A DNA stretch of 61,124 nucleotides from Octopus sinensis. Taxonomy: Eukaryota. The notes under the pieces are model-generated. The model was given only the letters and a program-made list of their open reading frames with translations, had not been told where the DNA came from and made no database searches. Positions 37,675 to 40,170 of this stretch are shown here, piece after piece (within the stretch, counting starts at the first letter, position 1; every line of letters starts with the position of its first letter). Made by a program: the position numbers and the translations under genes. The DNA lies in contig NW_021832395.1 of NCBI RefSeq assembly GCF_006345805.1, positions 1 through 61,124 on the forward strand. Reading direction: 5' to 3'.

Positions 37675-39129
37675 CAACAGTCTTTGAGACTCATATTGTC
37701 GTGGAATACTCAAAATGAGGAGTAGATAGACAACCGACAACTGTCCTGTTCTCCATTTTTTTCTCGTTGTTTACGTATTTTACTCAATGTTTGAACCGTT
37801 AGTGACGTCCTGTACCAATATATGCACGTATATATATATATATATATATAATAATATATATATATAGATATAGTATATTATCTACTATATATACATACAT
37901 ACACTTATACATGCATACATACATACATACATACATACATACATACATACATACATACATACATACATACATACATACATACATACGTACATACATACAT
38001 ATATGCATGCATACATACATGTATGCAGAGAGAAGACAGACAGGTAGATAGACAGATAAACAGATATATAAGTCATTATTATTATTATGAAATTATGTAT
38101 GTATATATATATATATATATATATACACGTACACAAACATACATACAAACACACACATACAAGCATATATATATATATATATATATACATACATATATAT
38201 ACATATATATACACACTCTCAGTCACAGACACACATATGTATCGTAATAAAATGAACGAAAGTTATATCCACCACAACTTACAATGCATAACACGCTGTC
38301 TATTACTTCCTTTTGTATGTGTGTGTATGCTTACATATGTATGTATACATAACATATACACACATAATATATGTGGGGTGTGGGTATAATAATAAAATGG
38401 ACAAAGTTTCCTCTATCCTTCCCGCTTCAACTCAAAAAAAAAACTGAAAAATATTTATATGGTGGTTTGGAAATATGTACACTACAAGTGTATAAATGTT
38501 TTTACAACTGTTAAACATGGCGACGAATAATATTTTTGAAAAAAGACAGCAAGGAAAGAATAGAAGAAAATAGAAAGAAAAAAAACGATGAATGAGAGAG
38601 AGCGAGCGGGGGAGAAAGTGGGAAGGTTATAAACATGCCATATAGTCATTTAGCAACACAGATAAAACATTTTTCACCACCAGTAACAATATGAATTGAC
38701 TATTGAAAGATAGTACTAAGTCGTGTTCTATGCAGTGTGTTTGGTGTCGTAATGACCATAAATATTCCAAACGACTTTCTAAACATGGCCGTATATGTTT
38801 CTGAAAAAATGAACAAAAACGAAAAGAAAAAAAAAAAGGAACCACGTTTAAAAGTGTCATATTGTGTTTTGATGTTAGTTGAGAGGTTTGTTTTATTGTT
38901 TTTGTCAGTTTATTATTTTTGTTTTCCTCTTATTTTGCTGCTCCGTTCATAGATGTAACTATTTTTTATATTATTGCTCCTGTGTCATTGACGCCTTGTT
39001 TTCATGATATACATTCAGTCATACACTCATAAATACAAACATAACATACACACATGCATACATAGATAGTTACACATGTATATATATATTTATATATACG
39101 CGAGAAAGAAGCAACAAGAATGGATAGGT

Positions 39130-39220
39130 TTTTAGTACGATCGTTTCATACAAGGACAGGTTTTATTAAAAGTTGCAAAGATTACAGCATATAAACTAGT
39201 CCCGTACTCATCAGCTAAAA
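39130..39220 (-). ncRNA. Type-I hammerhead ribozyme (mirror copy)
   Basis: Exact reverse complement of 39894-39984. Confidence 0.8.
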
Positions 39221-39893
39221 TACATGTAAGTTCTCTAGACATCCTAGTGTTTGAGGCTATACTCATGAAGTAATGTAGATAATTAAACAGATTTCTAAAG
39301 TTCATTAAAGTTCCTTAAAGATGATGTATAGTCTTATCACAGAATTTTAAAAAAGTTTTGATAGCATCACAGAGAAGGTGACCTAATCCATATGAATTTC
39401 CATAGATATGATGAGGGATTATATACTCACAGAAGACAAATTTATCCATTGTTATTAGCATTACAGAGAGGGTGAATTAATCCTTTGTATATATGCACAG
39501 ATTCCAATGGTGTAGATGTAAATTTCCAGAGAAATGGAGATGAATTTCATATTCACAGGCGATAAATTTTACAATGGTTGAACACAATGAGGTAGGTACC
39601 AATCCTTGTTATATGATTAGGTGTTTGCCATATTAATCACACTACTGCTATTCACAAGAGGCTGTATGGATAAATTTGTCTTCTGTGAGTATATAATCCC
39701 TCATCATATCTATGGAAATTCATATGGATTAGGTCACCTTCTCTGTGATGCTATCAAAACTTTTTTAAAATTCTGTGATAAGACTATACATCATCTTTAA
39801 GGAACTTTAATGAACTTTAGAAATCTGTTTAATTATCTACATTAATTCATGAGTATAGCCTCAACACTAGGATGTCTAGAGAACTTACATGTA

Positions 39894-39984
39894 TTTTAGC
39901 TGATGAGTACGGGACTAGTTTATATGCTGTAATCTTTGCAACTTTTAATAAAACCTGTCCTTGTATGAAACGATCGTACTAAAA
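39894..39984 (+). ncRNA. Type-I hammerhead ribozyme, canonical core, long stem II, palindromic stem III
   Basis: UUUUAG-CUGAUGA-GUACGGGAC...GUCCUUGUAU-GAAAC-GAUC-GUA-CUAAAA; stem I UUUUAG/CUAAAA; ACGAUCGU palindrome; predicted cleavage after 39978. Confidence 0.8.
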
Positions 39985-40170
39985 ACCTATCCATTCTTGT
40001 TGCTTCTTTCTCGCTTATAATCACCCCACATTACTGTATTGTTAAATCAGTATAGTTTTTTTTTGGTGCATCTAAGTTAGGTACCATATTCAAGTAAATT
40101 TTTTAAATTAACTTTGAATCTTATTGCTCTTTGAAATATTTATATATATATATTATATATATTATATATA

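Follow-up and report, generated by a model that had tools for sequence, protein, structure and literature searches.

Head-to-head 3′ ends of a truncated, probably Hydra-clade PLE carry predicted hammerheads with a long stem II in Octopus sinensis

The stretch of Octopus sinensis DNA analysed here (the window) is the whole of a 61-kb contig (61,124 nt), and it was compared against a genome of 2.72 Gb in 13,516 contigs. Its main feature is an inverted repeat that lies between two runs of (TA)n and carries a predicted hammerhead ribozyme in each arm (Table 1). An initial annotation had described a near-perfect 350-bp repeat with about two differences between the arms, and this is what we find: the 350-nt alignment of 39100–39449 with 39666–40014 contains one substitution (39270/39845) and one 1-nt indel (39250). 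Both are changes of the right arm, given that all 105 family copies read have C at the substituted site and that 97 of 103 have a run of three A at the indel site, from which the right arm deviates. The outline of the element had to be redrawn. The 216-nt middle had been taken for a spacer but is element sequence that continues the left arm, and the arms overlap by 1 nt at 39666 in the central junction. The right boundary had been placed at 40014, whereas the element reaches about 40133 through a 119-nt tail. The left arm is 98.8% identical to the parent unit in locus L031, in which the ORF starts at unit position 168, downstream of the sequence equivalent to the tail. The window element is two element 3′ ends joined head to head, and the whole feature is almost certainly a 5′-truncated insertion (39100–40133) of a young Hydra-clade PLE in (TA)n. 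As had been annotated, it has no ORF of note, the longest Met-initiated frame in 39095–40135 being 57 aa. A genome search for an empty allele or a second copy of the insertion site matched only the window itself, and (TA)n would hide any target-site duplication.

Several other observations concern the element and the rest of the contig. Upstream of the ribozyme, the 3′ UTR of the element (window 39362–39569) contains degenerate direct repeats of 28–49 nt, possibly promoter repeats. Dispersed repeats of 160–240 nt with 83–93% identity are abundant in the window in both orientations, and we presume that they are likely SINEs; one of them, at 40628–40868, forms a hairpin around a (TATG)n run. The ORF fragments at 4415–5068 (+) and 10958–11407 (−) look by eye like C-terminal pieces of LINE proteins.

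Table 1 Features of the window, with positions counted from its first nucleotide.
Feature	Position	Strand	Description
(TA)n target, left side	39077–39099	.	C39099 is an extra base (G in element sense)
Left arm	39100–39666	−	last ~570 nt of PLE unit (unit 3985–4553), 5′-truncated, untailed end
Predicted hammerhead, left arm	39130–39220	−	identical to that of the right arm; cut site 39136
Right arm	39666–40014	+	last ~350 nt of PLE unit (unit 4199–4553), 5′-truncated
Predicted type I hammerhead, right arm	39894–39984	+	intact core, GUA cut site after 39978
Stem I, 6 bp	39894–39899 with 39979–39984	+	
CUGAUGA core	39900–39906	+	
Extended stem II, 60 nt	39907–39966	+	basal helix, A-rich internal loop, apical hairpin
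AAUAAA hexamer inside stem II	39947–39952	+	26 nt before cut site
GAA core	39967–39969	+	
Stem III palindrome ACGAUCGU	39970–39977	+	followed by A17 = 39978
Tail	40015–40133	+	119 nt, first nucleotides of next tandem unit, 5′ UTR; right end only
(TA)n target, right side	40136–40218	.	
Dispersed repeat examples	2038–2243, 6948–7180, 26508–26748, 30392–30694, 40628–40868, 45801–46045		

Results

The initial annotation had proposed a search for the parent PLE, and the genome does contain one. At L031, a frameshifted coding sequence for an RT and a GIY-YIG endonuclease lies between two direct copies, whose spacing gives a parent unit length of 4,553 bp, and L111, of the same family, has a 947-aa open frame in which an RT with YRDD is followed by a C-terminal GIY-YIG (VIY..YIG). 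The motifs of the L111 frame are IRWK, ADKTG, YRDD, CKCRIKSKC (CxCX5C), CQLC (CxxC) and CVH (CxH), and its GIY-YIG region is without a cysteine pair between GIY and YIG. Most of these motifs are common to relatives at 50–75% identity; across six aligned ORFs DKT is present in all six, and RWK in three, RWR in one and RWA in two. The diagnostics given for the Hydra clade in the available part of PMC8557442 are RWK, DKG changed to DKT, a CxCX5C linker, CxxC and CxH. (TA)n stands next to the window element on either side and next to nearly all family ends inspected, and partial tandems (pLTR) are present in L031, L033 and L140. As assigned by motifs and not by a tree, the parent is almost surely a Hydra-clade PLE with a C-terminal endonuclease, and we call it a variant of that clade since the traits it does not share (short hammerhead, <3 kb) are only descriptive.

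Other assignments were rejected. Naiad is defined by an N-terminal endonuclease, DKA and no canonical hammerhead, whereas the endonuclease here is C-terminal and the motif DKT; Neptune/Nematis has CX2-5CxxC, CCHH and two cysteines between GIY and YIG, whereas the linker here is CxCX5C and there is no such pair. Selenocysteine read-through was also dismissed, since frameshifts with mixed stop codons account for the breaks in L031, and the L111 frame needs no recoding to stay open. Pfam returned RVT_1 (E = 2.9e-4) and GIY-YIG (E = 0.002), each on fragments and below cut-offs, and no relevant family for three long ORFs; a PDB sequence search gave 0 matches. Between RT and endonuclease, the ORFs of L111, L112, L113 and L116 carry Asn-rich insertions that differ in length, and similar insertions are described in rotifer Penelope elements (PMC3846280, available part).

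The window locus had been put forward as special and the best candidate, but it is ordinary, one of hundreds with the same build. With the right arm as query, 40 of 1,316 candidates were scored and at least 43 matches at 98–100% were obtained, and the 22-nt 3′ half of the ribozyme has 811 exact genomic matches compared with 0 for the reversed control. Among the first 100 of these 811 matches listed there are 33 neighbouring pairs (66 matches) that are inverted, with 3′ ends outward and within 10 kb, 0 inward-facing inverted pairs and one direct repeat 4,552 nt apart. The inverted junction is present at 59 of 63 sites examined, which comprise 43 from match searches (window included) and 20 chosen from the listed inverted pairs; 40 of the 63 were hand-picked, many as pairs, and among unselected sites from the 22-nt search the junction is present in 18 of 20. 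Duplicate fetches of one site are excluded from the counts, as is L034, a near-copy of L033. L033 and L034 are near-identical complex insertions with the same junction ~27 kb apart, which suggests a local duplication or an uncollapsed haplotype. A three-arm insertion was seen at L038:3267–5079, where a tailed arm stands beside a separate untailed/tailed palindrome.

The ends of these insertions follow a strict rule. All 53 pairs with both ends readable have exactly one tailed and one untailed end (p about 2e-16, assuming independence); the remaining six inverted sites either run off the analysed stretch (three) or continue into tandems (three). In the literature searched, where subscription titles were thinly covered, we found no counted one-tail rule for PLE insertions. 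Sister families behave alike, with one end 34–44 nt and the other 108–157 nt past the cut site in eight of eight readable inverted pairs (L112 and L115, not readable as pairs, are left out). The arm starts vary between loci, from unit 319 to 4635. The longer arm is the tailed one in 17 of the 53 pairs and the untailed one in 15, and in the other 21 the arms agree within 20 nt, compared with 3.5 such near-symmetric pairs expected by permutation. An extra base of the type of C39099 is present at most untailed ends: the base before TATA is G at 33 of 52 untailed ends versus T in 57 of 57 internal copies, and the extra G is never internal (0/57), while a few untailed ends lack the last C instead. 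The extra G possibly arises by CG-dinucleotide slippage at RT initiation or as a non-templated base.

Copies of the family differ by 0.59% between loci and the two arms by 0.19% within loci (~205 nt, 38 two-arm loci), which agrees with the recent origin claimed for the window element. The O. vulgaris calibration of JC 0.09 to 25 My (PMC13282606) would date the family to less than about 1 My. Across 10 polymorphic sites in the 38 two-arm loci, zero loci are discordant by substitution, and a private C-to-A variant (A39917/T39197) is shared by both window arms and found in 0 of the 37 other two-arm loci. The arms most likely arose at the same time, in a single insertion, and not through a later inversion.

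Each arm contains the annotated hammerhead motif with an intact core, although calling it canonical was an overstatement. The type I core (CUGANGA, GAA, A15.1-U16.1, H17) and three stems are all present, and A17 and the cut position at 39978 are as claimed. However, the basal helix of stem II opens with a G-U at pair 10.1-11.1, not with the G-C that had been given, and the suggested Infernal/Rfam check did not return a hammerhead in any of 13 matches for 39050–40060 at E ≤ 10, nor among 150 of 242 matches listed for the whole window. The miss at this locus is probably due to the long stem II. Its length had been recognised as unusual, and rightly so, given that it spans 60 nt compared with 12–26 nt in 26 Hydra rows of File S2 of PMC8557442.

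Folding predictions place the active fold of the window ribozyme monomer 4.8–7.8 kcal/mol above the minimum with a stem III probability of 0.00, and give the stem III palindrome in trans a duplex of −10 kcal/mol. These values point to a dimer or protein-assisted ribozyme at best, in line with the earlier suggestion that the palindromic stem III is suited to dimers. The 3′ strand of basal stem II has an alternative partner in the cut-site GUAC (window 39963–39979), and the resulting inactive hairpin is favoured in the alignment fold too and is possibly a built-in off state. The predicted ribozyme is probably active in some format. Its role would be in tandem parent transcripts, with cleavage as a dimer or with protein help, and at the window insertion it is likely a passenger. 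The balanced choice between self-cleavage and dsRNA that had been envisaged for the locus is not borne out: in the predicted read-through RNA every one of the 91 ribozyme nucleotides is paired to the antisense arm, and no dimer can form on a single transcript between ribozymes of opposite strands.

Sister families keep the core and have a stem II of 45–68 nt across 42 distinct variants. For 15 aligned variants, 87% of cells pair in the stem model compared with 78.5% in shuffles and 30–50% in slid controls, and 11 of 21 pairs have double-sided (covarying) changes, in a structure that was drawn from the tested sequences, some of them picked with a search pattern that presupposes stem III. Stem I and the apical hairpin came out of RNAalifold, which placed the competing hairpin in preference to basal stem II. 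Pair 10.1-11.1 is GC in five of the 15 variants, GU in three, AU in two and unpaired in five; U-U at this position is frequent in published Hydra ribozymes (PMC8557442) and supports cleavage (PMC3088659), according to the available parts of both papers. Genome-wide, the pattern CTGANGA-N44-68-GAAACRWWYGTA has 13,727 matches compared with 43 for the control. Many more hammerhead families with long, unrelated stem II sequences were seen, several as inverted pairs (for example, L151, L153, L156 and L158).

Of 42 related stem II variants, 36 carry the hexamer as AAUAAA or AUUAAA at 17–26 nt before the cut, followed downstream by U-rich sequence, and four other families lack it. It may be a poly(A) signal or, alternatively, a structural A-rich loop; its conservation is a lead only, since the variants are related and A/T-rich. 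Literature searches with thin coverage of subscription titles turned up neither an octopus PLE hammerhead with a long stem II nor a PLE hammerhead containing a poly(A) signal.

Discussion

The locus very probably represents a truncated Hydra-clade PLE with head-to-head 3′ ends and predicted hammerheads with a long stem II, likely made from one RNA in a single event. How such an event would proceed is less certain, and we regard the chances as evenly balanced for a scheme in which one RNA with two start sites is copied twice. The GIY-YIG nuclease of the element would nick both strands of (TA)n, and each nicked end would prime RT at one of two internal starts ~120 nt apart, which would give one untailed and one tailed end; both starts adjoin UAUA. 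The two cDNAs would stop early and join centrally by short homology. The template would be uncut at the hammerhead or a re-ligated circle, given that the two ends of the window element reach 36 and about 155 nt past the cut site and that the longer-than-unit copies L031, L033 and L140 continue across the upstream cut site. Copying of this kind would account for the outward 3′ ends, the one-tail rule, the variants common to both arms, the symmetric stops and a longer arm on either side. There is precedent in vitro: PMC11167929 reports for an Anolis PLE that both target strands are cut and extended, that two internal starts define the tail and that uncut RNA is the template, and it predicts a dimer. 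On the other side, the Anolis starts are reported as non-homologous to the target, whereas here both abut UAUA, and the 21 near-symmetric junctions and the shared arm variants would also fit later gene conversion or homogenisation during assembly polishing. A more specific version is tentative and, in our view, rather doubtful: a dimeric RT would copy one RNA twice, from starts 34–44 nt past the cut and at the tail end, and the expanded stem II would be an RT-positioning module with a poly(A) signal that competes with cleavage.

The closest competitor, which we consider unlikely though well worth weighing, is that one cDNA self-primes, folds back into a hairpin and copies itself, with the endonuclease resolving the far end at the TTATAA unit junction. 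Self-priming has been proposed for Penelope palindromes (PMC3846280, available part), and the private variants common to both arms and the 21 of 53 junctions that are symmetric within 20 nt also fit fold-back copying. However, fold-back from a tailed first strand needs the tailed arm to be the longer one, and 15 of the 32 asymmetric pairs, among them the window locus itself (untailed from 3985, tailed from 4199), show the reverse. A different question is whether the locus serves as a source of hairpin RNA, yielding siRNA or an ADAR substrate that silences the family, and this we find improbable. A read-through RNA is predicted to fold as a duplex of ~350 bp (MFE about −670 kcal/mol), and with hundreds of such pairs some may be transcribed; yet the 49 long ORFs of the 61-kb contig included no recognisable host gene (a survey that leaves room for short exons), a pLTR promoter would, judging from the PLE literature, fire outward into single-arm RNAs, the family has nonetheless reached hundreds of near-identical copies, and the window locus has no distinguishing feature.

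Two further explanations are highly improbable. Long inverted ends, no ORF and high copy number recall a MITE-like or retrozyme-like non-autonomous element that is mobile as a unit, but this is largely refuted by junctions that vary as widely as the arm starts do and by asymmetric ends, and the sequence is the 3′ end of a 4.55-kb RT-encoding unit with no short tandem monomer. An assembly or chimeric-read artefact could be suspected in an unplaced contig of an assembly with many 1-nt indels (such as the L031 frameshifts). We reject a chimeric read given that the flanks are not mirrored, the left one being single-copy (1 genomic match), and that the two ends differ, at the two element-specific sites found in 53 of 53 loci.

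If the proposal of one RNA copied from two starts is true, it explains inverted pLTRs and one-sided tails together. The family offers hundreds of natural insertion products under a strict rule, which makes the steps of PLE integration, among them the origin of inverted copies and one-sided tails, testable, and it is useful for those steps that are unsettled since it is young (0.59%) and has long open ORFs (947 aa, L111). The pattern matches in this one genome amount to a large hammerhead class, which Rfam missed at the window locus. As descriptors built on short stems would miss the long-stem class, ribozyme counts in such genomes are probably underestimated.

Comparison with known systems

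PLEs with inverted truncated copies, one-sided tails or hammerheads on opposite strands are already on record. The closest relatives are those of the Hydra clade (Craig et al. 2021, PMC8557442; Hydra-1_Obim, Penelope-13_HM), which, in the part of that paper available, have RWK, DKT, CxCX5C, CxxC and CxH in common with the octopus element and likewise no CC between GIY and YIG, a (TA)n target and a type I hammerhead near the 3′ end. The entry for Penelope-13_HM there gives a 5′-truncated inverted copy and a hammerhead on each strand, like the window element, and the paper describes an inverted 5′-truncated copy and a tail that is often confined to one end. In contrast, Hydra families are generally <3 kb with a tail usually of 30–40 nt, whereas the octopus unit is 4.55 kb with Asn-rich insertions and has a tail of 119 nt; Hydra-1_Obim is, judged by eye, a different family.

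The dimer-type hammerheads of metazoan PLEs (Cervera and de la Pena 2014, PMC4209133, available part) share the type I fold in the pLTR and the short palindromic helix III, and opposite-strand hammerheads paired at distances of 100–700 bp have been reported there; inverted pLTRs with junction palindromes are known as well (PMC3846280, likewise in part). Their helix II has 6–8 bp with a highly conserved G10.1-C11.1, unlike the 60-nt domain opening with G-U described here and unlike the sister families of the octopus element, which have G-C, A-U or U-U at this pair. Anolis Poseidon (Frangieh et al. 2024, PMC11167929), as far as its available text goes, resembles our proposal in two tail-defining starts, extension of both strands and an uncut template, and its ribozyme needs protein, a form of help also envisaged here. 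It belongs to a different clade, and its ribozyme overlaps the ORF start, whereas here ~200 nt separate the cut site from the ORF start downstream. A precedent for a long stem II is given by the PLE-X1 spike-moss hammerheads (PMC8557442 File S2, available part), with a stem II region of ~50 nt; these are two unrelated plant elements listed without endonuclease, flagged as deviating and each a single family. The 60-nt stem II of the octopus element, more than twice the length of any in the Hydra rows, goes beyond the published accounts we found and makes this a new ribozyme variant.
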